Notes: a model not told the origin generated them from the letters alone. Positions 49,171-62,814 are shown, numbered from the stretch's first letter. The stretch: 64,000 nucleotides of DNA from an uncultured Clostridia bacterium (GCA_944381115.1 CALWJV010000006.1:15559-79558), one strand, 5' to 3'. Numbers and translations are program-made.

Positions 49171-49258
49171 TTTTCATTTAAAAAATCTTTATGAATCTCA
49201 GTCAATAAAGTGATGAAAAAATCCAGTATGTTACTTTTATAACCATAAATAAATATTT

Positions 49259-49300
49259 AAAAAAGTCCCCGGAAAGAAAAATTTTCCGGAGACTTTTTTT
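49259..49300. terminator. Bidirectional Rho-independent terminator
   Basis: AAAAAAGTCCCCGGAAA...TTTCCGGAGACTTTTTT between clpC and azlD. Confidence 0.75.
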
Positions 49301-49613
49301 AAATCAGATACATCATTACAAATTCAACAATAAAAACTACCGAACACGATGCAATCGCTACTTTAAAAAGACCTGCACCGAACCATGCAAGCACTACTCC
49401 GACTATCAGCGCTATCGCACCGGAAACCGGAGATTGCGTCGCTTCAATAATTGCCGGAAATGTCATTACCGACAAAGTAACATAAGGAACATAATATAAA
49501 AAAGACTTTAAAAACCTGTTTTTTATCTGTCTGCGTATAAGAACAATGGGAAGCATTCTGATAAGATAGGTAACACTTGCCATAATCAAAATATAAATGT
49601 ATATTTTGAGCAT
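49299..49613 (-). CDS. azlD: AzlD-family branched-chain amino acid transport protein
   Basis: VTYLIRMLP, FLYYVPY; small hydrophobic; 1-bp overlap with azlC. Confidence 0.85.
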   Translation of the reverse strand: MLKIYIYILIMASVTYLIRMLPIVLIRRQIKNRFLKSFLYYVPYVTLSVMTFPAIIEATQSPVSGAIALIVGVVLAWFGAGLFKVAIASCSVVFIVEFVMMYLI

Positions 49614-50356
49614 TATTTTACTTCCTCCGTTTCTTCATCATCTTTTCGGGGAAATAAAATTGCCGCAAAAGCAGAAACAAATATCGTAAGTATGATCGTC
49701 ACTGTGCCGTCGGTGAGTCCCCAAGAATCGGGAACATACCTCGATGCATAACTTAAAACAAAACATATAATAATAATGCCTGATATAACTTTGTTTTTTC
49801 TTGCAGGAGGAATTATTATCGCCAGAAACATTCCGTAAAGAGCAACGCTCAATGCACTTACTATGCTTGTCGGTAACCATGTACCGGCAAGGGCGCCTAT
49901 GACCGTACCCAAAGCCCACAAAGGAACAGCGGTAAACGCCGCTCCGTATATGTAGTACGGGTTTAAAAATCCGTCCCTTGCCATTGTGATACCAAAGATC
50001 TCATCGGTCACAAAGTAACTGCTGAAAAATCTGTGAGAAAGTTTTTCTTCTGGTGAAAATTTCTGACTGAGGGCACAACTCATAAGCATGTATCTTGCAT
50101 TTATGACAAATGTCATTATAGCAACTTCAAGATATGCTGCATTTTTTGATATAAGATCAAACCCGGCATACTCGCCTGCAGATGCAATACACAGCAGGCT
50201 TGCCAAAAACGACTGAAAAACGGAAAGTCCGGAATTTTTTGCCATTATACCGAGGGCAAACGATACCGCAAGATACCCAAGTCCTATCGGCACGGCATCT
50301 CTCATCCCTTCCGCAAATACCTTTTTGCGTCCTTTTTTTATGTCCAAAAGGTCCAT
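49613..50356 (-). CDS. azlC: AzlC-family branched-chain amino acid permease
   Basis: PIGLGYLAVSF, INARYMLMS, VTDEIF; ATG 50356 preferred over TTG 50377. Confidence 0.88.
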   Translation of the reverse strand: MDLLDIKKGRKKVFAEGMRDAVPIGLGYLAVSFALGIMAKNSGLSVFQSFLASLLCIASAGEYAGFDLISKNAAYLEVAIMTFVINARYMLMSCALSQKFSPEEKLSHRFFSSYFVTDEIFGITMARDGFLNPYYIYGAAFTAVPLWALGTVIGALAGTWLPTSIVSALSVALYGMFLAIIIPPARKNKVISGIIIICFVLSYASRYVPDSWGLTDGTVTIILTIFVSAFAAILFPRKDDEETEEVK

Positions 50357-50525
50357 TTCCTTGCTCCAATTCAACAATTTAATCCGATGTATTCAGGCGG
50401 TAACTTTATGCCCTTGAAAAAAATTTCAAAGGGCATTTTATTGCTTTACACGAGAAGGCGAATATAATTTTATACTCTAATGTATTTAAAAATTACTTCT
50501 TTTTTTGAAATTTTACAATTTTTAA

Positions 50526-51341
50526 TTATGTAGCGGCTATTCCGAAAACCTTCGCGGCATTGTACCCGAGAAGTTTTTTGTATTCTTCCTCGGAAAAGCC
50601 GAGAGACATGAGTTTTGAAAGTTCTTCCGATGCATCCCACATCGGATAATCGGTAGCAAACATAACTCTGTCTATTCCGAACGCCATAATATATTCTTTC
50701 ACTTTCTCATTTGGCAAAAACGGGAAAGACGATGAACAGTCGACATAAAGATTTTCAAATTTCGGAAGTTTCTTTGTTGCTTCTTCCCAGACCGACCAGC
50801 CTCCGAGGTGAGCGCCTATTATAATAAGGTCCGGAAAACTTTTAAGTACCGGGATAAGTTGATCGGGGTTGGAATTGTTGTACCTATAATCACCCGTGTG
50901 CATCAGTATCGGAAGTCCGTGATTTTCGCAAAGCTCGTATATCTTCATACACTTTTTGTCGTCTATTCTGAAATTCTGAATATCGGGGTGGAGTTTTACG
51001 CCGTGAAGCGAAAGTTCGCACAGGTGATCAAAATCGCCTTCAATATCGGCGCTGTCGGGATGAAGCGTACCGAGTCCGGTGAGTTTTCCTTTGTACTCTG
51101 CTTCCTCTTTTGCGATAAATTCATTGATGCTTTTTACCTGCTTCGGTACCGAGGCGACGGATTGTACCACAAAATGGTCGATCCCGACCTTTGTACCCTC
51201 TTTGACCATGTCTCCTGCAATTCCGTTTTTCAGCGAATGAAGGCCGTAAAATGTATTTGTACCGTTAACGGCTCTTTCCGCTATTTTTTCCGGATAGATA
51301 TGACAGTGCGCATCCACCGTAAAAAATTTATTTTGATACAT
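50526..51341 (-). CDS. Amidohydrolase-2 family metal-dependent hydrolase
   Basis: DAHCH, GVKLHP, MHTGD, AHLGG, FATDYP; TAATG overlap with upstream gene. Confidence 0.88.
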   Translation of the reverse strand: MYQNKFFTVDAHCHIYPEKIAERAVNGTNTFYGLHSLKNGIAGDMVKEGTKVGIDHFVVQSVASVPKQVKSINEFIAKEEAEYKGKLTGLGTLHPDSADIEGDFDHLCELSLHGVKLHPDIQNFRIDDKKCMKIYELCENHGLPILMHTGDYRYNNSNPDQLIPVLKSFPDLIIIGAHLGGWSVWEEATKKLPKFENLYVDCSSSFPFLPNEKVKEYIMAFGIDRVMFATDYPMWDASEELSKLMSLGFSEEEYKKLLGYNAAKVFGIAAT

Positions 51342-53860
51342 TATGCCGTCACCACTTTTGCTGCTTTTTGGAGTCCGAGTTTTTCAATAGCTTCCTCACG
51401 CATTTTATACTTAAGGATCTTTCCGGCTACATTCATCGGAAACTCCTTTACAAAGTCTATATATTTCGGTACTTTATGCCTTGCCATATGGGCATTGATA
51501 TATTCTTTCATCTCCTCGGAGGTCATGGTCTCACCGTCTTTCAGAATTATACAAGCCATTATCTCTTCACCGTACTGCTCATCGGGAACGCCTATTACCT
51601 GAACGTCCTTTACCTTCGGATGGGTATAGATGAACTCCTCTATTTCCTTCGGGTAAATATTCTCACCGCCGCGGATAATCATGTCTTTGAGACGACCGGT
51701 GATACGGTAGTTTCCTTCTTTCGTGCGGCAGGCAAGGTCTCCGGTATGGAGCCAGCCATCCTTGTCAATCGCGGAGGCGGTCGCCTTGGGCATCTTGTAG
51801 TATCCCTTCATTATGTTATAACCTCTTGCAACAAACTCGCCAGTGACCTCATCCGGACACTCTTCTCCCGTTTCTGGGTCAACTATCTTACATTCGATCT
51901 CAGGGAGCGCGCGTCCGACGGTTCCGACTCTGACTTCAATCGGGTCATCTGTCGAACTCATAGTACATCCGGGAGATGCCTCCGTCTGACCGTAAACTAT
52001 CGTTATTTCGTCCATGTGCATCTTCTTTATAACATCGCGCATAACGGAAATCGGGCAGGGGCTTCCAGCCATAATACCGGTACGCATATGCGAAAAATCG
52101 GTCTTTGCAAAGTCCTCATGTTCAAGAAGTGCAATAAACATCGTGGGAACTCCGTGGAATGCGGTTATCCTCTCGGCGTTTATACATGCAAGCGCCGGTT
52201 TCGGTGCGTAATACGGGAGCGGGAGGAGTGTAACTCCGTGTGTCATACTTGCGGTCATGGCAAGGACCATTCCGAAACAGTGGAACATCGGGACCTGTAT
52301 CATCATTCTGTCCGCGGTGGAAAGATCCATTCTGTCTCCGATACATTTACCGTTATTTACGACATTGTAATGAGTAAGCATAACGCCCTTGGGGAATCCC
52401 GTGGTTCCGGAAGTATACTGCATATTGCATACGTCATCCTTATCAACGGCGTCTGCTCTTCTGTATACCTCTTCGACCGGTACCATATCCGCCCTTGCTA
52501 TCGTCTCTTCCCATGTCAGACAGCCCTTTTGTTTAAATCCTACGGTAATTACGTTGCGGAGGAAAGGCAGACGGCGGCTGTGAAGAGGCGTTCCAGGTTT
52601 TGTATTTGCGAGTTCTGGACAAAGTTCTGCAATGATCTCAGAGTAATTTGAATCACGGTAACCGTCGATCATGACAAGCGTATGAGTATCTGACTGCTTC
52701 AAAAGGTATTCGGCCTCGTGAATCTTATATGCGGTGTTCATTGTGACGAGAACTGCTCCTATTTTCGTTACCGCCCAGAATGCTATATACCACTGAGGTA
52801 TATTCGTTGCCCAGACCGCTACGTGGTCTCCGGGCTTTACGTTAAGAGAGATAAGACTGCGGGCGAAAGTATCGACGTCCTTGCGGAACTCATAGTATGT
52901 TCTTGTATAGTCAAGCGTCGTGTACTTGAATGCAAGTTTATCGGGAAATTCCTCTACCATACGGTCAAGTACCTTCGGGAAGGTCAGATCGATCAGCATT
53001 TCCTTTTTCCAGATATATCTGCCGGTGTGGGCTTTGTTGTAATAAAGCGAGCTATCCGACTTTGAGGTGTCGCTGAACTGGCTCATAAAGTTTTCAAACT
53101 GTGACAGTACTATTTCGAGGTCATCGATCTCTTCGCACCATTTCGGATCCCATTCAAGTGAGATAAAGCCGTTATAGTTGACCGAACGCAGTGCGCAGAT
53201 AAGTTCGTTTATCGGGAGACTTCCCTCCCCCACAAGGCAATAATTTATGCCTTTATCAGTCTTTTCGGCATCCTTTATATGAATGTGCTTTACGTAAGCG
53301 CCAAGAGTTTCGATCGTGGTCTCGGGAGACTGTTCCGCTATAAAACAAGTGGAATAAACATCCCACAGTGCGGAAAGGCTGTCACTTGCAAAACTGTCGA
53401 GCATGTCGCGCAATTTTTTTGCGTCACTGAACAGTCCGCTTGTTTCAAGAAGGATGTCTACCCCTGCGTTTTCCGCTATGGGGAGTATTTGGGAAAGGAA
53501 TCCACGCACTGTATCAAAATCGTTTTCTCCGTGGGAGGACGCATGTACTCTTATATAAGGTATATGAAGGTTTTCGGCGATCTTTATGCACTCTTTGAGT
53601 TCTTCCATTGCCTCTTCGGACTTTTCCGTATCGGCGGGATCGCATATGCTGTCTATGCACGGAATGCTGAGTTTCATCTCATAAAGTCTTCTGAGCGTTG
53701 CGGCGGTCGCGTATTCATTGAATGCGCTATCACTGCTTGTAAAGAGTTTGTTTTTTATATTGTGAAGTTCTATTCCGGAAAAGCGAAGATCTTTTGCTAT
53801 ATCGCAAAACTGCTCAAAACTTTTTCCGTGCCAACCCTTTGTTGAAAATGAAAGTTTCAT
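51341..53860 (-). CDS. Fusion: xylose isomerase-like TIM barrel plus AMP-forming acyl-CoA synthetase
   Basis: aa ~1-260: LLET, WD, HIHIKD, SLEW; C-terminal part: YTSGTTGFPKG, YGQTE, GWLHTGD, GRLKDMIIRGGEN, GKILK. Confidence 0.9.
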   Translation of the reverse strand: MKLSFSTKGWHGKSFEQFCDIAKDLRFSGIELHNIKNKLFTSSDSAFNEYATAATLRRLYEMKLSIPCIDSICDPADTEKSEEAMEELKECIKIAENLHIPYIRVHASSHGENDFDTVRGFLSQILPIAENAGVDILLETSGLFSDAKKLRDMLDSFASDSLSALWDVYSTCFIAEQSPETTIETLGAYVKHIHIKDAEKTDKGINYCLVGEGSLPINELICALRSVNYNGFISLEWDPKWCEEIDDLEIVLSQFENFMSQFSDTSKSDSSLYYNKAHTGRYIWKKEMLIDLTFPKVLDRMVEEFPDKLAFKYTTLDYTRTYYEFRKDVDTFARSLISLNVKPGDHVAVWATNIPQWYIAFWAVTKIGAVLVTMNTAYKIHEAEYLLKQSDTHTLVMIDGYRDSNYSEIIAELCPELANTKPGTPLHSRRLPFLRNVITVGFKQKGCLTWEETIARADMVPVEEVYRRADAVDKDDVCNMQYTSGTTGFPKGVMLTHYNVVNNGKCIGDRMDLSTADRMMIQVPMFHCFGMVLAMTASMTHGVTLLPLPYYAPKPALACINAERITAFHGVPTMFIALLEHEDFAKTDFSHMRTGIMAGSPCPISVMRDVIKKMHMDEITIVYGQTEASPGCTMSSTDDPIEVRVGTVGRALPEIECKIVDPETGEECPDEVTGEFVARGYNIMKGYYKMPKATASAIDKDGWLHTGDLACRTKEGNYRITGRLKDMIIRGGENIYPKEIEEFIYTHPKVKDVQVIGVPDEQYGEEIMACIILKDGETMTSEEMKEYINAHMARHKVPKYIDFVKEFPMNVAGKILKYKMREEAIEKLGLQKAAKVVTA

Positions 53861-55248
53861 TTTGTTTTCTCCTCATACACTGTTTTGTTTACCGCATTGA
53901 TATAAGCCTTTATTGATGCTTCCATTATATCGGTGGAAATGCCGTTTCCGGAGTAAACCTTACCGTCGTTACGGAGTTTTACCAAAGCATATCCCATGGC
54001 TTCCTGTCCTTCAGTTACCGACTGTATCTGGAAATCGTCCAGTTCGAAACGGCGTCCTATTATCTGACTGAGCGTCTTAAATGAGGCGTCTATCGGGCCG
54101 TCTCCTGTTGAGATTCCGCTTATATATTTTCCGTCTTTTTCAAGTTTTATCTGAGCGGACGAATCAATTATATTACCGTTATTTATAAGGTAACTTACGA
54201 GTTTGTACGTCGGCGGTACTTGAAGCGCAACACTCGATACTATCGCATCAAGATCCTTTGCAGTTATCTTTTTCTTCTCCGCAACACGTTTGAACTCCTC
54301 ATAAACTCTTTTAAGATCGTCATCCGAAAGGTCGTATCCGAGTTTCTTTACGGCGTCAAAAATACTTTCCTCGCTGTCGTGTACATCGAATACATTTACA
54401 TTGTCGGAAATTTCGATCTTAGTAGATGCGTTAACTTTCTTACCGCCTTCAATCCACTCTATCTGATTTACACTGCGGTTAAGTATATTGTAATTTATAC
54501 CGGAGAAAAGCCCGCATCTTTCTCCGCAACCGAAAAGTATCTTTGCAAAATCGTCAAGTCCGGTGATATCCTTTTTGCCTACACAGCATTTTATTTCATC
54601 AACACTGGCCTTTGCCGCCATGACTGCGGAAGCGCTTGCCATACCGTTCGTGTTTTTACATACCACGCCGACAGTAACTTTTTCAAGTTCCGGTATGTTT
54701 GTATAAGTATCTTTTATAAAAGCGGCAAATTCGTCTGGAAGCATTGCGCCTTCGTCATCGCAAAGGGTTACGGCTTTTACTCCCGCGTCTATTGCGCCGA
54801 TTACCATTTCACGAAGGAATGCACTGTCGGCGCGTGTTGCGTCTTCGGCATAAAACTCCACATTTTCGCATTTTGCCGTTGCCGCGGCAAAAATCTCTTT
54901 TGCAAAAATCACCATTTTTGCCGGTTTTTTATGATAAACATACTCCATCTGTATCGAGGAAACAGGGAGCCTTACTGCCATACGGGCATTTTTCGAGCCG
55001 GATATCGCGGCGGCGGCGGCATCTATGCTTTCCGTGCTGCTTCCTGATTCTACACAGAGGGCACTGTTTTTTATAAATGCGGAAACTGTACGTATAAGAA
55101 GCGAATCCGCTTTTGTATTCTCTATCTTCGGCATATATATAACATCAACATTAAGGTTATCAAGGCATCTTGCGACCTCAATCTTTTCTTTAAATGATAA
55201 TGTCGGATAGACTGTAAGAGTCATATCAGAAATTATAATCTTTTTCAC
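53857..55248 (-). CDS. LeuA (2-isopropylmalate synthase)-like protein with degenerate catalytic domain and intact regulatory domain
   Basis: VEFYAEDATRAD and LPDEF recognisable; GDGPIDA and STDIMEASIKAYINA retained; DRE and HxH motifs absent; GTG start after GAAAGG. Confidence 0.85.
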   Translation of the reverse strand: MKKIIISDMTLTVYPTLSFKEKIEVARCLDNLNVDVIYMPKIENTKADSLLIRTVSAFIKNSALCVESGSSTESIDAAAAAISGSKNARMAVRLPVSSIQMEYVYHKKPAKMVIFAKEIFAAATAKCENVEFYAEDATRADSAFLREMVIGAIDAGVKAVTLCDDEGAMLPDEFAAFIKDTYTNIPELEKVTVGVVCKNTNGMASASAVMAAKASVDEIKCCVGKKDITGLDDFAKILFGCGERCGLFSGINYNILNRSVNQIEWIEGGKKVNASTKIEISDNVNVFDVHDSEESIFDAVKKLGYDLSDDDLKRVYEEFKRVAEKKKITAKDLDAIVSSVALQVPPTYKLVSYLINNGNIIDSSAQIKLEKDGKYISGISTGDGPIDASFKTLSQIIGRRFELDDFQIQSVTEGQEAMGYALVKLRNDGKVYSGNGISTDIMEASIKAYINAVNKTVYEEKTK

Positions 55249-55277
55249 TTTGTTTTCCTTCTTTCTTCTGTTTTTAT

Positions 55278-55560
55278 AAAAAAAGCCCCCGAAGCCATAA
55301 TGGCTTCAGGGGCGAATTTATCCGTGTTACCACCCTGTTTACCGCAAAATACGGTCACTCTGTGAGGCTCTGACAAGCCTTTTGCCTTGATAACGGAGCA
55401 ATCCGGAATCTCTTAATGAACCATGCTTGTACGGCAAAACAGGTCTGTTCGGAGATTCTGCTCGGGAATGAGACTTTATCCGTCTTCCGCATATCGGACT
55501 TACACCAAATGCCGACTCTCTGTGACGCTTTCAAACGGAAAATAATTCCTTCTTAGCATT
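55278..55560 (-). ncRNA. T-box riboswitch, probable Leu specifier (CUC)
   Basis: Stem I with AGAGA and GGUG, specifier CUC-A at 55472-55469 before closing UUCC, CCGUUAUC box, T-box AGGGUGGUAACACG (55336-55323), terminator hairpin 55278-55313 with U-tract. Confidence 0.9.
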
Positions 55561-55583
55561 TTCTCATGTTTGACAACGAATTA

Positions 55584-55612
55584 ATTATACCACAAAGAAA
55601 GACACTTTTCAA
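55584..55612 (-). promoter_or_regulatory. Sigma-A promoter of the Leu T-box operon
   Basis: Minus strand TTGAAA-17 bp-TATAAT with TG extension. Confidence 0.7.
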
Positions 55613-55662
55613 TGTATAAATTATGAATTTTCTGGGTAATTTTTTGATATTTACTATCAATA

Positions 55663-56727
55663 TTACTTTATCGGGACTGTCCAGCCGTACTTATCTTCAA
55701 TCTTACCCCACTGGATTCCGGTAAGAGTATCATAAAGATGAGAGGTTACCTCTCCGATCTTTCCGTCGTTGATTATGTACTTGACATCTTTATAGCAGAG
55801 TTCGCCAATAGGAGAAACAACAGCCGCCGTTCCGGTTCCCCATGCCTCTTCGAGTTTGCCGTCTGCAAGAGCCTTACCGATCTCATCGATGCTTATGCGT
55901 CTTTCGCTGACTTTATATCCTTCTGCTCTGAGAATTTCGAGGCACGACTTTCTTGTTATACCGGGAAGTATGGATCCGGTAAGTTGAGGAGTTACGACCT
56001 CGCCGTCGATCTTAAACATTACGTTCATTGCACCGACCTCTTCGATATATTTACGTTCTACACCGTCAAGCCAGAGTACCTGAGAATAACCCTTTTCTTC
56101 CGCCTTTTCGCCTGCACGGTTACTTGCGGCATAGTTACCTCCGCACTTTGCTTCTCCGGTACCGCCTCTTACGGCTCTGACGTCTTCCGCTTCTATCATG
56201 ATCTTAACGGGGTTTATACCCTCTTTATAATAACTTCCGACGGGAGATGTGATGATCATAAATGTTGCATGCTTTACGGAATGAACTCCGAGAGTCTCGT
56301 CGTTTCCGAACATAAACGGACGGATGTAAAGCGATGTTCCGGGTGCAGAAGGTACCCAATCTTGCTCGAATTTAATAAATTCGGTAAGAATTTGCATTGC
56401 GGTATCTTCCGGTATCTGCGGAAGGCAGAGACGCTCTGCGGAACGGTTCATCCTGCGTATGTTTTCCATCGGTCTGAAAAGTTGAACACTTCCATCGGAC
56501 TTTCTATACGCTTTGAGACCTTCGAAGACCTCGGAGCCGTAATGAAGTGCCGTACATGCGGGATGAAGTTCTATCTTTCCGAACGGAACTATTCTTGCAT
56601 CATGCCAGCCTTTTTCGGGATTATATTCCATAATGAACATATGATCGGTAAAATATTTACCGAATCCGAGTACAGAAGCCTCGGGCTTTACCGCCGGAGC
56701 GGTCGTTTTTGTTATTTTGATTTCCAT
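55663..56727 (-). CDS. ilvE: Branched-chain amino acid aminotransferase
   Basis: FGKYFTDHM, FEGLKAY, LYIRPF, AKCGGNYA (PLP Lys), EEVGAMN, ILPGITR. Confidence 0.96.
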   Translation of the reverse strand: MEIKITKTTAPAVKPEASVLGFGKYFTDHMFIMEYNPEKGWHDARIVPFGKIELHPACTALHYGSEVFEGLKAYRKSDGSVQLFRPMENIRRMNRSAERLCLPQIPEDTAMQILTEFIKFEQDWVPSAPGTSLYIRPFMFGNDETLGVHSVKHATFMIITSPVGSYYKEGINPVKIMIEAEDVRAVRGGTGEAKCGGNYAASNRAGEKAEEKGYSQVLWLDGVERKYIEEVGAMNVMFKIDGEVVTPQLTGSILPGITRKSCLEILRAEGYKVSERRISIDEIGKALADGKLEEAWGTGTAAVVSPIGELCYKDVKYIINDGKIGEVTSHLYDTLTGIQWGKIEDKYGWTVPIK

Positions 56728-56904
56728 GACTTATTCATCTCCGAAATTAAATCAAATTTTTGTCGTCCGGCAGATCCGAAAGACTTTCCGTAACGGAAAA
56801 ACCTTCGAAAATTACCGTGCGTAATAAAATCTCAGTATTCTGAATCGCCGGTCTTGCATGTCTTTTTTCTTAACTCATACGAAAGACATACTATTTACCG
56901 GTTT

Positions 56905-57450
56905 TCAGTTTTCTTTATAGTTTTTTCCGAGGATCATTGCACTTAGATTGGTTTCGAGCATATCGATATGTCTTGCCGAAATTACTTTTTTCAGTGCGGC
57001 ATCAACTGCTTCCTTGTCGTCAAACTCTCCGTTCTCCTTAAGAACTTTACCCATAATGATCATGTTTGCAAGAGTAGGAATATTGTTATCCGACGCCATC
57101 TGTGTTGCTGGAATATAGAAAACGTTTACATCCGCTCTCTTTACCTTGCGATCTATAAGTGTTGAATCAACATAGATCGTTCCACCGGGAACGACGCTGT
57201 CCTCGTATCTGTCAAGTGACGGAAGGTTCATTGCGATAAGTACATCTGGTTTTGAAACTATCGGAGAACCGACCGGTATGTCGCTTATAATAACGCTACA
57301 ACTTGCGGTTCCTCCTCTCATTTCGGGTCCGTATGAAGGAAGCCAACTTACATTCGCACCGTCTATAAGGCCTTTATAAGCAAGGAATTTTCCTGCAAAC
57401 AGAATTCCCTGACCGCCGAATCCGGCGATAAGATACTGTGTTGTTTTCAT
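56905..57450 (-). CDS. 2-oxoacid:ferredoxin oxidoreductase gamma subunit
   Basis: [17 protein letters not shown]; ATG 57450 after AAGGAG. Confidence 0.93.
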
Positions 57451-57463
57451 TGTATTTTCCTCC

Positions 57464-58207
57464 TTATTTCTGTGCAGATCTGTCCTTATATACACCAAGA
57501 GGGTAATAAGGAATCATTTTTTCATCGATCCACTTGAGAGCCTTTTCCGGAGTAAGTCCCCAGTTAGTCGGACAACTTGAAATTACTTCAACAAAGGAAA
57601 ATCCCTTTCCGTTTACCTGGTTTTCAAAAGCCTTCTTTATGGCCTTTTTTGCATTTTTTATGTTCTTAACATTATTTACGGCAACACGCTCAATGTACTC
57701 GGGACCGTCAAGTTGCGAAAGCATCTCACAGACCTTTATCGGGTAACCGCAGAGGTTTACGTCTCTTCCGTAAGGAGATGTCTGCGTGACCTGTCCGGGA
57801 AGGGATGTAGGAGCCATCTGTCCGCCTGTCATACCGTATATTGCGTTATTAATAAATATAATAGTAATATTTTCATTTCTTGCGGCGGAGTGGACCGTTT
57901 CTGCCATACCTATGGAAGCCAGGTCTCCGTCACCCTGATATGTAAATACTATGTTCTCGGGGTCGGAACGTTTTACACCTGTTGCAACTGCCGGAGCACG
58001 TCCGTGAGCCGCTTCTATCATATCACAGTTAAAATAATCATATGCCATAACAGAACAGCCGACAGGTGCTATTCCGATCGTTCTGCCTTCTATTCCGAGT
58101 TCATCGATTACCTCGGCAACAAGACGGTGGATTATACCGTGTGTACATCCGGGACAGTAATGAAACGGTACGTCGGAAAGAGCATGCGGTTTATCAAATA
58201 CTACCAT
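57464..58207 (-). CDS. 2-oxoacid:ferredoxin oxidoreductase beta subunit (TPP-binding)
   Basis: YCPGCTHG, HGRAPAVATG, GDGD...NN TPP motif, YGMTGGQ, CPTNW. Confidence 0.93.
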   Translation of the reverse strand: MVVFDKPHALSDVPFHYCPGCTHGIIHRLVAEVIDELGIEGRTIGIAPVGCSVMAYDYFNCDMIEAAHGRAPAVATGVKRSDPENIVFTYQGDGDLASIGMAETVHSAARNENITIIFINNAIYGMTGGQMAPTSLPGQVTQTSPYGRDVNLCGYPIKVCEMLSQLDGPEYIERVAVNNVKNIKNAKKAIKKAFENQVNGKGFSFVEVISSCPTNWGLTPEKALKWIDEKMIPYYPLGVYKDRSAQK

Positions 58208-59274
58208 TAGTTATTACCTCCTTTTTCCGCCGCGGCTTCTATTGCGGCAAGTACCTGCTCCGGAGACGGTATCATACCTCCAGTACGGTTGCAAAGCGTT
58301 ACATCCGCTTTTCCGTTTACGGCAAGTTTTATGTCTTCGATCATCTGACCCATCGAAAGTTCAACGGATATAAACGTTTTTGCTTTTTCTGCCGCTTTTG
58401 CAATTTGCTTTTCTGGGAACGGCCAAAGCGTTATAGGTCTGATCATACCCGCTTTAATACCTTTTTTGCGTGCCTCGTTAATAGCGTTCTTGGAAACACG
58501 AGCAGCAATACCGAATGCTACAATGCAGATCTCCGCATCTTCCATAAGATAATCTTCATATCTGACTTCGTTCTGCTTTATTGTCTCGTAACGCTGATAG
58601 CGATCATAGTTTGTTTTTTCAAGAATTTCGGGTTTGAGGAAGAGAGAGTTTATTATGTTATGCTTTCTCTGCATCTTAGTTCCAGTGACCGCCCATGGTT
58701 TTTCTATGCTCTTTTCTACCGGAATGTCAAGGGAAACAGGCTCCATCATCTGTCCCATCGTTCCATCTGCAAGGATCATAGAAGTCATGCGGTATTTATC
58801 CGCAAGTTCAAATCCTTTGACGGTAAGTTCCGCCATTTCCTGAACGGAAGCAGGGGCAAGAACAATCATATGGAAATCTCCGTGAGCTCCACCCTTTGTT
58901 GCCTGGAAGTAGTCGGACTGCGAGGGCTGAATACCCCCGAGTCCCGGCCCGCCTCTCTGAACATTTATGACAAGTGCCGGAAGATCGGCTCCTGCCAGAT
59001 ATGACAAGCCTTCTCCTTTAAGAGATATTCCGGGACTGCTTGAAGATGTCATTACACGCTTGCCCGTTGAGGATACGCCGTATACCATGTTAATCGCTGC
59101 GATCTCGCTCTCGGCTTGAAGAAATACTCCGCCTATTTTAGGCATTCTTTTTGCCATGTAAGCAGCAATCTCGGTCTGAGGTGTTATCGGATAGCCGAAA
59201 TAATGTCTGCATCCTGCGATGATAGCCGCTTCGGCAATCGCTTCGTTACCTTTCATTAAAACCTTATCTGCCAT
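58207..59274 (-). CDS. vorB: 2-ketoisovalerate:ferredoxin oxidoreductase alpha-type subunit (VorB family)
   Basis: GYPITPQTE, QAESEIAAINM, TSSSSPGISL, RGGPGLG, QSDYFQATKGG. Confidence 0.88.
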   Translation of the reverse strand: MADKVLMKGNEAIAEAAIIAGCRHYFGYPITPQTEIAAYMAKRMPKIGGVFLQAESEIAAINMVYGVSSTGKRVMTSSSSPGISLKGEGLSYLAGADLPALVINVQRGGPGLGGIQPSQSDYFQATKGGAHGDFHMIVLAPASVQEMAELTVKGFELADKYRMTSMILADGTMGQMMEPVSLDIPVEKSIEKPWAVTGTKMQRKHNIINSLFLKPEILEKTNYDRYQRYETIKQNEVRYEDYLMEDAEICIVAFGIAARVSKNAINEARKKGIKAGMIRPITLWPFPEKQIAKAAEKAKTFISVELSMGQMIEDIKLAVNGKADVTLCNRTGGMIPSPEQVLAAIEAAAEKGGNN

Positions 59275-59283
59275 TTTAAAGTC

Positions 59284-59490
59284 CTACCTTTCTACCTTGA
59301 TTATACAGTCAGGACACATCGTAGCACAGAATGCGCAGCCAATGCATGCGACCTCGTTTACTGCTTCTACTGGGTGATGTCCTTTTTGATTGATTTTGTC
59401 GGCGGCAAGTGCAAGTACGCCTTTTGGGCAGACGCCTACGCAAAGACCGCATCCCTTACAATTGTCGGTTTTAAATGTCAGTTTTGCCAT
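59284..59490 (-). CDS. 2[4Fe-4S] ferredoxin (oxidoreductase delta subunit)
   Basis: Two CxxCxxCxxxCP motifs. Confidence 0.93.
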   Translation of the reverse strand: MAKLTFKTDNCKGCGLCVGVCPKGVLALAADKINQKGHHPVEAVNEVACIGCAFCATMCPDCIIKVER

Positions 59491-59504
59491 TGTAAACTCT
59501 CCTT

Positions 59505-60164
59505 TTACATATATTTTTGCAAATTTATCGGATATAAATTTTTTATCTTTCCTTCAAGTTCCGGCAGAAGTTTTTTATACACTGTTGTATAAGCTATCGG
59601 AAGACCCGTTCTTTTTGCGACCTCTTCTACAAACGGTACTGATAAAAGAACTGTATTCGTGTCTGTCTCTTTGCCTAAATTGGAGTTATTTATGATAGAG
59701 GTAAATTTTAGTCTGCACGCCTGTTCTATCTCCGTCATGACCTCTATGGCACTTTCAGGAGTACTTGTAAGCGGTCTGTATTTATTTACCACATATATCA
59801 TTTCGTAATTGTTTTCCTGCTGTATCTTCGGAACCAGTCTTCCCAGAGCCAAAGCACCCCGCTCGTCTCCTCCAACGTCAAGTATACTGTAAAGCGTCTT
59901 GTCATCGGTAACAGCATACATCTCCTGAGGGAGCGCCGGAATATCAACATTGCTGTTAGCATATTTTGAGCAGATCAGCCGTATACCGTTTTTATTCAGT
60001 AGATCTTCGCTGTCCTTTGTACGGAAATACGGATTGACTATATCGATGTCCGCTATCGCGGTATTTTCGTGTTGTTTTTTTAGATCGAGTGAAAGGGATA
60101 CGGCAATATTTGTCTTACCGCTTCCGTAATGTCCCGATATTATAGTAATTCGTTTGAAATCCAT
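59505..60164 (-). CDS. P-loop ATPase (MinD/ParA/CobQ-like) associated with vor genes
   Basis: GHYGSGKTN, DIDIVNPYFRT, LDVGGD; ATG 60164 after GAGG. Confidence 0.85.
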   Translation of the reverse strand: MDFKRITIISGHYGSGKTNIAVSLSLDLKKQHENTAIADIDIVNPYFRTKDSEDLLNKNGIRLICSKYANSNVDIPALPQEMYAVTDDKTLYSILDVGGDERGALALGRLVPKIQQENNYEMIYVVNKYRPLTSTPESAIEVMTEIEQACRLKFTSIINNSNLGKETDTNTVLLSVPFVEEVAKRTGLPIAYTTVYKKLLPELEGKIKNLYPINLQKYM

Positions 60165-60178
60165 CGCGTTGCCTCTTA

Positions 60179-62464
60179 TCAAAGTTTGTTACGCTGGATC
60201 TTTCCGCTTGTCGTTTTGGGAAGTTCATCTCTGAAAACAACTATTCTCGGGTATTTGTAAGGAGCAGTATGAGTTTTTACGTAATCCTGTATCTCTTTTT
60301 TAAGCGCTTCGGACGGCTCGGTTCCTTTTACAAGAACGACGCTTGCCTTGACGACCTGTCCTCTTACCTCATCAGGAGCGGCGGAAACACCGCATTCGAG
60401 AACATAAGGAAGTTCCATAATAACGCTTTCTATCTCAAACGGACCTATGCGGTAACCGGAAGACTTTATAACGTCGTCAACACGTCCGACATACCAGTAG
60501 AATCCGTCCTCATCGCGCCATGCAACGTCTCCGGTGTGGTAGTAACCGTCGTGGCGTACCTCAGCGGTCTTTTCCGGGTCGTTGTAGTACTCGGTAAACA
60601 GTCCGCATGGAGAGCCGTTGGCAATATTTACAACTATCTCTCCGGACTCACCGACTGCCGCAGGCTTTCCTTCAGGAGTAAGAAGTTCAACATCGTATAT
60701 CGGTGCCGGCTTACCCATGGAACCTATTTTATGCGGAGCACCTGTCAGGTTTCCTATGATCATTGTACTTTCCGACTGACCGAATCCTTCAAGGATCTGA
60801 AGTCCCGTCGCCTTTTCAAACTGTCTGTAAACCTCCGGGTTGAGCGCTTCTCCCGCCGTCGTCATATGCTTAATGGAAGAAAGATCGTATTTTGAGATAT
60901 CTTCCTTTATCATCATACGGAGCATCGTGGGTGGTGCGCAGAATGTCGTGATATTGTATTTTGCAAACATCGGAAGTATATCCGCTGCGTTGAAGCGATC
61001 GAAATCGTATACGAACGTTGCCGCTTCGCAGAGCCACTGACCGTAAAATTTACCCCACATGGCCTTTGCCCATCCAGTATCGGATATGGTAAAGTGGAGC
61101 CCGTCCGGGCAGACGTTGTGCCAATATTTTGCAGTGTGGAAATGACCAAGCGCATATTTATAATTATGAACTGCAATCTTCGGGTATCCCGTCGTTCCCG
61201 AGGTAAAGAACATGAGCATAGTGTCGTCGCCGCCGGGAGTCTGTTCAGTACGTTCGAAATGCGTACTGAAAAGTTCGCATTCTTCGTCAAAATTTCTCCA
61301 ACCTTCGCGGTTTCCGCTGACTATCAGTTTATATACAAGTGTCGGGCATTTATCCGCAACAAAGTCGACCTGCTCGGCAGCGATTCCGTTTCCTGCGCAG
61401 ATTATGGCTTTTACTCCCGCCTTGTTGAAACGATATTCGTAGTCATGAGAAAGAAGTTGATTCATTGCGGGGATCGCAATAGCACCTATCCTGTTAAGCC
61501 CCAAAACAGCATACCAAAACTGATAGTGACGTCCGAGTACCAGCATGACTTTGTCGCCTTTTTTTATACCGAGCGATTTGAAATAGTTGGCCGCCCTGCA
61601 TGAAAGCCTTTTCATATCTTTGAATGTGAATCGAGTCTCCTTTTTATCGGCAGATATATGGAGCATCGCAAGTTTATCTGGTGATTTTTTTGCAATTTCA
61701 TCTATAATATCAAAGGCAAAATTGAATTTTTCAATATTTTTGAATTTAATGGATATCGGGGTACCGTTTTCGTTTTCAACTACATCGACAAACTTTTTGT
61801 ATACACGGTCCTCGGTGTCCTTGCTTACCGACGCTTGTGACTTTGATACCGGTGCTTCAAGTTCCGCATCCGGCTCTCCCGCCGGGTTAAGGACCATCGC
61901 GTAAAAGTAACAATCCTCTCCTCCAATGGCTATCATTCCGTGTGGCGTTGCACTGTCGTAGTAAATAGTATCGCCCGCTCCGAGAATCTCGCTGTGATCC
62001 CCTATCTGCACCTTAAGATGTCCTTTTATAACTATATCGCATTCCTGACCTTCGTGAGTCGTAAGTTCTATTGGCTTTTCCTGAGCCTCTTTGCTGTATT
62101 CACTGCAAACGTACAAAGGCTCGGCTATCCTGTTTTTAAACGAGGGTGCAAGGTTGTAATAAGTCATACCATGCGCCTGTTCGATCTTTTGTCCGCCGCC
62201 GCTTCTTGTAAGCGTATAGGACATCAGTTTCGGGCTTTGTCCCGCTATGATATCAGTAACGTCGACGTTAAAAGCGGCCGCACAACGGTATATAAAAGCA
62301 AAATTAAGATCGGAGTGACCGTTCTCGCATTCTATGTACTCCTGCTCGCTGACATCAGTCTTTACAGCCATCTCGGCCGTACTGAGCCCTTCTATCTCAC
62401 GGAGTTCTTTTATTCTCTCCGCCATTTCCCTGATCTTCAAATCAAGTCCTGTTGCATTTTTCAT
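60179..62464 (-). CDS. Fusion: XRE HTH-cupin plus medium-chain acyl-CoA synthetase
   Basis: RIKELRE...ENG HTH, cupin HEGQE/YYDSATPHGM, then FTSGTTGYPK, DTGWAKAMWGKFYGQW, GFGQSE, YYHTGD, PKTTSGK; ATG 62464 after GGAAAGG. Confidence 0.92.
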   Translation of the reverse strand: MKNATGLDLKIREMAERIKELREIEGLSTAEMAVKTDVSEQEYIECENGHSDLNFAFIYRCAAAFNVDVTDIIAGQSPKLMSYTLTRSGGGQKIEQAHGMTYYNLAPSFKNRIAEPLYVCSEYSKEAQEKPIELTTHEGQECDIVIKGHLKVQIGDHSEILGAGDTIYYDSATPHGMIAIGGEDCYFYAMVLNPAGEPDAELEAPVSKSQASVSKDTEDRVYKKFVDVVENENGTPISIKFKNIEKFNFAFDIIDEIAKKSPDKLAMLHISADKKETRFTFKDMKRLSCRAANYFKSLGIKKGDKVMLVLGRHYQFWYAVLGLNRIGAIAIPAMNQLLSHDYEYRFNKAGVKAIICAGNGIAAEQVDFVADKCPTLVYKLIVSGNREGWRNFDEECELFSTHFERTEQTPGGDDTMLMFFTSGTTGYPKIAVHNYKYALGHFHTAKYWHNVCPDGLHFTISDTGWAKAMWGKFYGQWLCEAATFVYDFDRFNAADILPMFAKYNITTFCAPPTMLRMMIKEDISKYDLSSIKHMTTAGEALNPEVYRQFEKATGLQILEGFGQSESTMIIGNLTGAPHKIGSMGKPAPIYDVELLTPEGKPAAVGESGEIVVNIANGSPCGLFTEYYNDPEKTAEVRHDGYYHTGDVAWRDEDGFYWYVGRVDDVIKSSGYRIGPFEIESVIMELPYVLECGVSAAPDEVRGQVVKASVVLVKGTEPSEALKKEIQDYVKTHTAPYKYPRIVVFRDELPKTTSGKIQRNKL

Positions 62465-62498
62465 AATACATTTCCTTTCCATTTTATGGGAAGCAGAC

Positions 62499-62775
62499 AA
62501 AAAGCCCGTCCCAAAGATTTTCTTTGAGACGAGCCTGAAATTCAAACCCGCGGTACCACTCAAATTGCAGTATAGACTGCCTCCTCAGGGTCAATAAACC
62601 CTTTCGCACTTACGCGGCTGTCACGGGGAGGGTCTACGGAAAATTCTTTCTTCCTCCCGGCTCGGAAGTTACAAACTTCAAGATCTCGTTTAACGGCTTT
62701 CACCATAAAACCCCGTAGAGTTTAATACCGTCTCTCTGCAAAACTACGTTCTCAAGTCCTCTTCGTCAACGCCTT
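62499..62775 (-). ncRNA. T-box riboswitch, probable Val specifier (GUA)
   Basis: Stem I with AGAGA and GGUGAAA, specifier GUA-A at 62672-62669 before closing CUUC, T-box UUGAGUGGUACCGCG (62563-62549), terminator GCUCGUCUCAAAGA/UCUUUGGGACGGGC plus U-tract. Confidence 0.9.
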
Positions 62776-62785
62776 TAATACCAAC

Positions 62786-62814
62786 ATTATAGCACCATAA
62801 TTTCATTTTGTCAA
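62786..62814 (-). promoter_or_regulatory. Consensus sigma-A promoter of the Val T-box operon
   Basis: Minus strand TTGACA-17 bp-TATAAT with TG extension. Confidence 0.85.

Follow-up and report, generated by a model that had tools for sequence, protein, structure and literature searches.

Twelve close-packed genes, all on the minus strand and arranged in two units, occupy positions 49259-62814 of a 64,000-nucleotide stretch of DNA from an uncultured Clostridia bacterium (hereafter the window). The window corresponds to G000:C6:15559-79558, where G000 is its source assembly (1.80 Mb, 19 contigs, 95.3% complete) and C6 the contig; the stretch was found in DNA sequencing runs labelled chicken gut metagenome, all from a single study, and no RNA run was among those that contain it. 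Annotation with Pfam, NCBIfam and Rfam placed each unit behind a T-box leader. Together with a third module on the same contig, the two units very probably form a T-box-controlled salvage regulon that replaces the canonical ilv/leu pathway and would rebuild valine, isoleucine and leucine from exogenous isobutyrate, 2-methylbutyrate and isovalerate. This reading, taken from sequence and genome comparison, is built on the leaders with their codons, on the families of the genes, on the lack of the canonical pathway, on synteny and on the match between codon and module.

Expression behind a T-box leader is switched on by the uncharged form of the cognate tRNA. Under the proposed mechanism, uncharged tRNA-Val, tRNA-Ile or tRNA-Leu would cause antitermination at the matching leader. 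A dedicated AMP-forming ligase would then convert the branched acid to its acyl-CoA, with cleavage of ATP to AMP and PPi. A single four-subunit 2-oxoacid:ferredoxin oxidoreductase of the VorB type (VOR), working in the synthase direction, would join the acyl-CoA and CO2 at the expense of reduced ferredoxin to give the 2-oxoacid and CoA, and from the 2-oxoacid IlvE would form the amino acid by transamination. What the three ligases act on, the working of the VOR as a synthase and the source of its reduced ferredoxin are predictions of this scheme.

T-box units and the missing pathway

The features of the two units are given below in window coordinates, beginning with the upstream unit (unit A) and continuing with unit B; all are on the minus strand.

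62786..62814, minus: promoter-like site of unit A, TTGACA-17-TATAAT, TG-extended, 12/12 matches, directly 5′ of the Val T-box; a consensus match only
62522..62778, minus: T-box leader, Val (RF00230, 69.9 bits, E 1e-13, model 1-219), specifier GUA+A
62536-62502, minus: terminator-like hairpin of the Val leader, G+C-rich with a T-run
60179..62482, minus: XRE helix-turn-helix (HTH) plus cupin plus MACS/MbcS-type AMP-forming acyl-CoA ligase, here ligase A (HTH_19/HTH_3, Cupin_2, AMP-binding, AMP-binding_C)
59505..60182, minus: small P-loop NTPase, CbiA/ParA-like (CbiA domain, E 1.8e-6)
59284..59490, minus: oxidoreductase delta subunit, 2x[4Fe-4S] ferredoxin-like (Fer4_7; OorD and OGOR-delta models below cut-offs)
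58207..59274, minus: 2-oxoacid:ferredoxin oxidoreductase alpha subunit, VorB type (NF005507, 543 bits, cut-off 399)
57464..58207, minus: oxidoreductase beta subunit, thiamine diphosphate binding (TPP_enzyme_C; PorB_KorB subfamily models below cut-offs)
56905..57498, minus: oxidoreductase gamma subunit, likely start ATG 57450 (POR domain, E 7.5e-32)
55663..56727, minus: IlvE branched-chain aminotransferase (NF009897, 482.5 bits, cut-off 307; TIGR01123, 407.3 bits, cut-off 250)
55584..55612, minus: promoter-like site of unit B, TTGAAA-17-TATAAT, TG-extended, 11/12 matches, shortly 5′ of the Leu T-box
55305-55563, minus (with terminator 55285..55563): T-box leader, Leu (RF00230, 96.4 bits), specifier CUC+A
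55313-55285, minus: terminator-like hairpin of the Leu leader, G+C-rich with a T-run
53857..55248, minus: LeuA-like protein, here pseudo-LeuA (HMGL-like barrel plus LeuA_dimer; catalytic motifs lost)
51341..53860, minus: xylose-isomerase-like TIM barrel (residues 1-280) fused to an AMP-forming acyl-CoA ligase, here ligase B (AP_endonuc_2 plus AMP-binding)
50526..51341, minus: Amidohydro_2 metal-dependent hydrolase (E 1.2e-30)
49613..50377, minus: AzlC-family membrane protein (AzlC domain, 134 bits, cut-off 32.1, E 6.4e-39)
49299..49613, minus: AzlD-family membrane protein (AzlD domain, 50.8 bits, cut-off 23.7, E 2e-13)
49259..49299, minus: terminator-like hairpin closing unit B, 3′ of azlD, 17-pair stem plus T-run

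The promoter-like sites of units A and B are the two best on the minus strand. The Leu leader scores above the Rfam gathering score of RF00230 (93 bits), and the orthologues of the Val leader in related genomes reach 79.6-101.6 bits with this model. In both window leaders the T-box cores (UGGUACCGCG / UGGUAACACG) were aligned to RF00230 by cmscan, and the specifier codons were taken from these alignments; antitermination by the cognate uncharged tRNA is predicted at the GUA and CUC leaders. An Rfam scan revealed no third T-box in the whole 64-kb window. Weak Rfam matches to NsiR1 at 49258-49318 and 55278-55332 (25-28 bits, cut-off 39) fall on the terminator hairpins and were rejected as small RNAs. 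An earlier note on this DNA had described twelve co-oriented genes in two T-box units with GUA and CUC specifiers, and the coordinates, domains, promoters, leaders and terminators bear that description out.

That note had also reported that the ilv and leu genes are absent from the window, and the absence holds across the whole assembly. Family searches of all of G000 found no ilvD and no ilvC (best 18 bits). A leuB-like match of 141 bits scores best as isocitrate dehydrogenase, and a leuC-like match, in a frame of 741 aa, reaches 79 bits. A search of the genome with the LeuA-like protein gave that protein only, and no second LeuA match. By these searches G000 is without ilvC, ilvD and genuine leuA, leuB and leuC, and the canonical pathway to amino acids with branched chains (BCAAs) is missing. 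The window copy is the only VorB-type enzyme above the cut-off in the genome. A single pyruvate:ferredoxin oxidoreductase (PFOR, 1695 bits) is a candidate ferredoxin reducer for the VOR. With respect to uptake, a genome search did not find BrnQ, and two BPD_transp_2 permeases are present. The genome also encodes, at G000:C13:74832-76781, a 649-aa acetolactate-synthase-like thiamine-diphosphate enzyme (ilvB 314 bits, cut-off 538), in the company of neither ilvC nor ilvD.

The third module lies on the same contig, its ligase approximately 9.6 kb past the end of the window, and consists of two features:

G000:C6:88798-89112, outside the window: Ile T-box, specifier AUC+A, 54.5 bits; antiterminator sequence in common with the Val leader
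G000:C6:89202-91466, directly 3′ of the Ile T-box: third ligase, a 754-aa XRE-cupin-ligase (MbcS best model, 450 bits, cut-off 850)

The Ile-linked ligase is 75% identical to ligase A in its catalytic part and 47% in its N-terminal part. The genome thus holds three ligases, each with its own T-box, for Ile, Val and Leu. The earlier note had assigned one ligase to Val and Ile together and one to Leu, and had regarded the window genes as a candidate complete system. Neither holds, since the ligase with the Ile T-box (G000:C6:88798-91466) lies outside the window and leaves the system there incomplete.

The association of codon and module extends to distant relatives. The LeuA-like protein served as query for a search of 201 genomes from the same order and of a 400-genome sample of the class. 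An orthologue was present in 47 of the 201 (G000 included), each time as one full-length match (E 2e-88 or better, 37-56% identity), and in 78 of the 400, distributed over many families. The window proteins were mapped by tblastn onto 42 loci from many families, 40 of them around orthologues and two from close metagenome-assembled genomes. In all 42 the TIM domain comes next after the LeuA-like gene; the ligase is visible in 40, and the other two loci stop at contig ends. Over these loci identity is 69-96% for the ligase B part, 37-79% for the LeuA-like part and 29-86% for the TIM part. An XRE-cupin-ligase (72-86% identity in the ligase part) is found nearby in most of them, commonly as a tandem pair. 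At least 32 of the 42 loci have a T-box motif 5′ of the LeuA-like gene, a figure that is a floor because the motif pattern overlooked at least one real leader, that of L062, which was found by cmscan; elsewhere the gene follows ilvE or another gene and has no leader.

The specifiers of these leaders were read by cmscan and by a pattern anchored on the conserved flank. By cmscan, CUC was read in 8 of 9 leaders of the LeuA-like gene (the window, L051, L063, L071, L088, L076, L079 and L062), AUC in 6 of 6 leaders of ligase copy 1 and GUA in 5 of 5 leaders of ligase copy 2. The pattern reading added 13 CUC and 1 CUG for the LeuA-like gene, making a total of 23 leaders read (21 CUC, 1 CUG and 1 CCC). 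For 37 ligase genes it gave 14 AUC, 13 GUA, 2 GUC and no other codon, with 5 contig ends and 3 unread. A FastTree phylogeny of the ligase domains places 13 of the 15 Val-linked ligases in a single clade that contains no Ile-linked one (support 0.99), and the Ile-linked ligases are paraphyletic around it. That each of three specifier codons goes with a ligase of its own in distant families would be difficult to account for if the ligases did not each serve to supply the amino acid concerned.

The module and the canonical pathway have a largely complementary distribution. The counts were made by hand from the search tables of the 201 genomes of the order and are descriptive counts rather than tests, as related genomes are not independent. 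Genuine LeuA (approximately 510 aa, with two shorter matches) occurs in 71 of the 201 genomes and beside pseudo-LeuA in 0 of the 47 carriers. ilvD is above the cut-off in 90 of 201, that is, in 5 of the 47 genomes with pseudo-LeuA versus 85 of the 154 others. The fused XRE-cupin-ligase, counted at a length of at least 700 aa, is likewise found in 71 of 201; ilvD is present in 11 of these 71 versus 79 of the 130 others. The LeuA-like gene resides mostly in genomes that lack ilvD and in none that has a genuine LeuA. In three ilvD-positive genomes (G103, G109 and G178) the fetched locus has no copy of ligase A. In G109 the Leu module still has the P-loop gene, vorDABG and ilvE next to it, an arrangement that fits a Leu-only version of the system. 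Unfused MACS-type ligases (547-600 aa, 51-58% identity to the window ligase domain) were observed in many genomes of the order that have ilvD and genuine LeuA, so the XRE-cupin fusion seems to be specific to the salvage regulon.

The Leu unit and its LeuA-like protein

Pseudo-LeuA fell below the cut-off of all 15 LeuA models listed, the best being NF002086 with 267.6 bits (cut-off 532), and its LeuA_dimer domain (PF08502) was recognized with an E of 2e-33. Homologues are named "hypothetical protein" by NCBI. In an alignment of 43 orthologues with 5 genuine LeuAs from the same order, attention was given to RDGEQ and HxH, which we take to be the metal- and substrate-binding motifs of LeuA, and to GIHQHG, presumably a linker segment. 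RDGEQ is absent from 43 of 43 orthologues, HxH from 43 of 43 (its second His remains in one), and the whole of GIHQHG has been deleted from all 43; among them the Glu of EDAxR varies. In the window protein, VCKNT aligns with HCHND of the solved LeuAs. At the level of 90% or more, 62 columns are conserved in the 188-residue regulatory domain and 31 in the 275-residue barrel; the barrels of genuine LeuAs have 112 invariant columns. On this alignment, constraint has shifted in pseudo-LeuA from the barrel to the C-terminal regulatory domain. The motifs GDGP and G-x-G-x-STD are common to pseudo-LeuAs and genuine LeuAs, and identity to the latter is 35-48% in the regulatory domain and 28-34% in the barrel.

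Pseudo-LeuA shares with LeuA the order of domains, an HMGL-like barrel followed by LeuA_dimer, and a position behind a CUC T-box; the available portion of PMC2700814 reports a Geobacter leuA behind a Leu (CUC) T-box. Unlike LeuA, it has no catalytic motifs, scores below the family models and is never found beside a genuine LeuA, and functionally it is not a member of the family. With rather less than even confidence, we propose that it is a dead descendant of isopropylmalate synthase that keeps the leucine-binding domain and could exert feedback control on the adjacent TIM-ligase. This suggestion comes from analogy with HisZ and with the feedback inhibition by leucine of LeuA, the first committed enzyme of the canonical pathway. 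In the HisZ-HisG pair a catalytically dead paralogue serves as an allosteric regulatory subunit, as described in the part of PMC9734150 that was accessible. The pair offers a parallel for a dead relative that mediates end-product feedback; the families are unrelated, and both leucine binding by pseudo-LeuA and its contact with the ligase are putative. A predicted complex of pseudo-LeuA and the TIM domain scored 0.01 against a mark of 0.32 (two alignments), which speaks neither way.

Ligase B, which together with its TIM barrel is 839 residues long, is of the PRK12583 type (705 bits, cut-off 832), and its ligase domain has no close characterized structure in the PDB (best match 251 bits). The Leu T-box, the missing leuABCD, the shared VOR and IlvE and the strong conservation point to isovalerate as its substrate, and ligase B is accordingly a putative isovalerate-CoA ligase. 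Its TIM domain matches AP_endonuc_2 with 88.5 bits (cut-off 31.1). The best hit of a PDB search was remote (3WQO, E 1.5e-4), and the Atlas neighbors carry generic family names only. The E-D-H-E metal tetrad, presumably the usual ligands of the AP_endonuc_2 family, is kept in the window and in about a dozen orthologues, and most of the 43 have substitutions in it (D>N, H>R/Q/L, E>V/A), which makes conserved catalysis of the usual kind unlikely. The metal ligands of the amidohydrolase (HxH, H, H and D) are retained in all of 17 sequences, and its best PDB match (3IRS) is an uncharacterized protein. It is present in 16 of the 42 loci. AzlCD adjoins the module in 1 of 42 (L017), and the TIGR00346 equivalog was not reached (48 bits versus 332). 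On this distribution the amidohydrolase is optional or accessory and AzlCD a local addition, neither being a core part.

These proteins invite a different account of the Leu unit, in which the LeuA-like protein, the TIM domain and the amidohydrolase would be enzymes that turn a lactone, a hydroxy acid or a conjugate into the ligase substrate or into 2-oxoisocaproate. Such an account would give a role to three proteins that the simple scheme leaves without one, and it agrees with the intact tetrad of the window TIM domain, the retained metal ligands of the amidohydrolase and the coupling of the TIM-ligase fusion to the LeuA-like gene in 42 of 42 loci. Against this, the barrel motifs of the LeuA-like protein are lost throughout, the TIM tetrad is replaced in most orthologues, the amidohydrolase is missing in 26 of 42 loci, and strong conservation is confined to the ligase part. 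We therefore consider a different precursor for leucine improbable.

Ligase chemistry and the direction of the oxidoreductase

The start of ligase A is uncertain (ATG 62482 or 62464), and its open reading frame remains open up to a TTG at 62563, within the leader. MbcS (NF047394) is its best NCBIfam model, with 437 bits against an equivalog cut-off of 850. Having likewise fallen short of this cut-off, the Ile-linked ligase was filed with it among the relatives, not the members, of MbcS/MACS. The catalytic domain of ligase A aligns with PDB 3ETC (MacsMa of Methanosarcina acetivorans) with 618 bits (E 8.6e-185), and ligase A is a putative isobutyrate-CoA ligase. The catalytic domains of the Val- and Ile-linked ligases belong to the same group as MacsMa and MbcS, and the two ligases differ from those enzymes in an additional N-terminal XRE HTH and cupin of approximately 240 residues and in their place behind T-boxes with VOR and IlvE. 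By analogy with pseudo-LeuA, the XRE-cupin heads could have a sensing or DNA-binding role. In the available text of PMC10455477, MacsMa is stated to prefer 2-methylbutyrate.

The kinship with MbcS raises the question of whether these ligases mainly feed branched acyl-CoA primers to branched-chain fatty acid synthesis, as does MbcS of Staphylococcus aureus, with amino acids secondary. MbcS is the best NCBIfam model of both XRE-cupin-ligases, and, so far as the accessible portions of PMC10026030 and PMC11167679 extend, it helps to form branched-chain fatty acids from isobutyrate and 2-methylbutyrate. The scores are, however, far under the equivalog cut-off, control by tRNA-Val, -Ile and -Leu and co-transcription with VOR and IlvE point to amino acid supply, and the distribution is complementary to that of ilvD and leuA. 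A primary function in lipid synthesis is thus quite unlikely, and it is possible that the acyl-CoAs serve both lipid and amino acid synthesis.

The oxidoreductase has the same delta, alpha, beta and gamma subunits, with the expected domains, as known four-subunit VORs. The alpha subunit exceeds the cut-off of a VorB model; the beta, gamma and delta subunits are under every equivalog cut-off. Operon context and T-box codons are the sole grounds on which substrate and direction are proposed here. The window type differs from known VOR in being always preceded by the P-loop NTPase, the gene for which sits directly 5′ of vorD in 15 of 15 related loci where vorD is visible, and in belonging to a T-box regulon, which would imply the synthase direction. 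The P-loop protein (approximately 220 aa) conserves a Walker A motif and a D-x-D-x-x-NPYF motif in 17 sequences. A PDB sequence search gave no relative, and the nearest Atlas clusters are of unnamed proteins with CobQ/CobB/MinD/ParA domains. It is probably a VOR accessory factor and may be an unrecognized one of this oxidoreductase type. A function as a NifH-like ATP-driven electron donor or as an Mrp-like Fe-S carrier was set aside because the 17 sequences share no conserved Cys.

Gene families alone leave the direction of the route unfixed; IlvE is reversible, as are VOR-type enzymes, whose best-known role is oxidative. Nevertheless, fermentation of Val, Ile and Leu by this cluster, with deamination by IlvE, oxidative decarboxylation by VOR and release of the acyl-CoAs as branched acids, is very improbable: uncharged tRNA is the wrong signal for degrading the amino acid in question; AMP-forming chemistry favors acid activation, and AMP-forming ligases are present rather than the enzymes that an energy-conserving release of acids would call for (phosphotransacylase/kinase, ADP-forming synthetase or CoA-transferase); and the genome is otherwise unable to make BCAAs, with the module depleted where LeuA or IlvD is present. 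The earlier note had argued for supply over catabolism and for a route from acid through acyl-CoA and 2-oxoacid to amino acid. This agrees with the match of specifier to module, the missing pathway, the single VOR, the MacsMa-like ligase and the complementary distribution, and the direction proposed in that note is the one that we favor.

Several observations weigh against the salvage regulon. As to its control, the Val leader of the window is below the gathering score of RF00230, 10 of the 42 loci have no T-box detected 5′ of the LeuA-like gene, and one leader (L085:10725-10969, genome G149) reads CCC, a proline codon, with flanks otherwise as in L088, which may represent a genuine change, a variant or a mistake in the assembly. 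VOR and IlvE stand only behind the Val leader, so starvation specific to Leu or Ile would require basal or read-through expression. As to its chemistry, which is drawn from comparison, all three ligases are below their equivalog cut-offs, so their substrates are not fixed by family; the VorB family name determines neither substrate nor direction; and the beta and delta subunits obtain their top scores, themselves below the cut-offs, with models of 2-oxoglutarate enzymes. As to its distribution, ilvD accompanies the module in 5 of 47 genomes, 11 of the 71 genomes with the fused ligase have it too, and kinship among the genomes means that the tallies overstate the association. Finally, the scheme makes no use of pseudo-LeuA, the TIM domain, the amidohydrolase, the P-loop protein or AzlCD and leaves the module partly unexplained.

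A more elaborate version of the salvage regulon can be envisaged. It would be self-contained and layered, with a dead LeuA that outlived leuABCD acting as a leucine sensor that gates the TIM-ligase, XRE-cupin-ligases acting as "trigger enzymes" in which catalysis is joined to the sensing of DNA or a ligand, three T-boxes and a VOR-specific P-loop accessory, and would constitute the genetic basis of the branched-acid requirement in about one fifth of the sampled Clostridia genomes. We advance it tentatively, as a possibility that is on balance unlikely.

Known systems and other T-boxes of the genome

It has been known since the 1960s that anaerobes of the rumen and gut require branched short-chain acids, which they carboxylate to Val, Ile and Leu. 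Allison and co-workers reportedly described this reductive carboxylation to BCAAs in rumen anaerobes in the 1960s-70s. The chemistry proposed here is the same, with isovalerate yielding Leu, isobutyrate Val and 2-methylbutyrate Ile by carboxylation and amination. The rumen work was physiological and isotopic, whereas the present system consists of genes, three T-box switches and extra conserved proteins in uncultured Clostridia with DNA in chicken gut metagenomes, as opposed to the classical rumen isolates. Routes by carboxylation of isovalerate, isobutyrate and 2-methylbutyrate are cited in the accessible part of PMC7356843, and the available portion of PMC2812497 gives an Ile route deduced from the genome of Methanobrevibacter ruminantium.

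The earlier note had known of no description of this gene set as a unit, and full-text literature searches, with subscription journals and supplements outside their coverage, returned no paper on the gene set, on a linkage of T-box, ligase and VOR or on a LeuA pseudoenzyme, and none that gives the rumen route its genes, dedicated ligases or regulation. The biochemistry of the pathway is old; the gene set may be new, and one regulatory element is possibly new. The locus provides a testable gene set, composed of three ligases, one VOR with its accessory NTPase, IlvE and three T-box switches that name the products of their modules. Standard annotation would score the carriers as BCAA auxotrophs. 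Recognition of the regulon changes the cross-feeding predicted between amino-acid fermenters and fiber degraders and has a bearing on branched-acid feed supplements. Pseudo-LeuA, for its part, would illustrate clearly the reuse of a biosynthetic enzyme, probably as a sensor.

The genome has 11 T-box matches in all. One of them (94.9 bits) heads a gene cluster at G000:C15:32445-37003 (L090:445-5004), in which it is followed by genes for a PaaK-like ligase (549 bits, cut-off 646), IorA (728 bits, cut-off 651), IorB and a 141-aa ACT-like protein. The specifier is UUC or UCU, depending on the extent of the stem. From its gene content the cluster looks like a counterpart of the BCAA system that leads from an arylacetate to an aromatic amino acid. 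Its logic of T-box, ligase and oxidoreductase is the same, but its ligase family and oxidoreductase are others and its specifier is ambiguous. Synthesis of phenylalanine from phenylacetate is also cited in the part of PMC7356843 that was available.

Two Tyr (UAC) T-boxes were found, at G000:C1:62947-65153 (L089) and G000:C16:154-2131 (L091). One is followed by a 554-aa acyl-CoA ligase (PRK06187-like, 411 bits, cut-off 476) and the other by a sodium:solute symporter, and the pair could serve uptake and activation of a precursor acid of tyrosine. A Trp (UGG) T-box at G000:C5:52659-54485 (L092) precedes a TrpB-like pyridoxal-phosphate enzyme (NF009057, 676 bits, cut-off 366), an arrangement suggestive of indole salvage. 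With T-boxes placed before ligases and a TrpB-like enzyme, the organism apparently obtains several amino acids by T-box-controlled salvage of fermentation acids. Further T-boxes of the genome precede valS-, pheST-, aspS/gatAB- and thrS-like genes, named here from size and position only.

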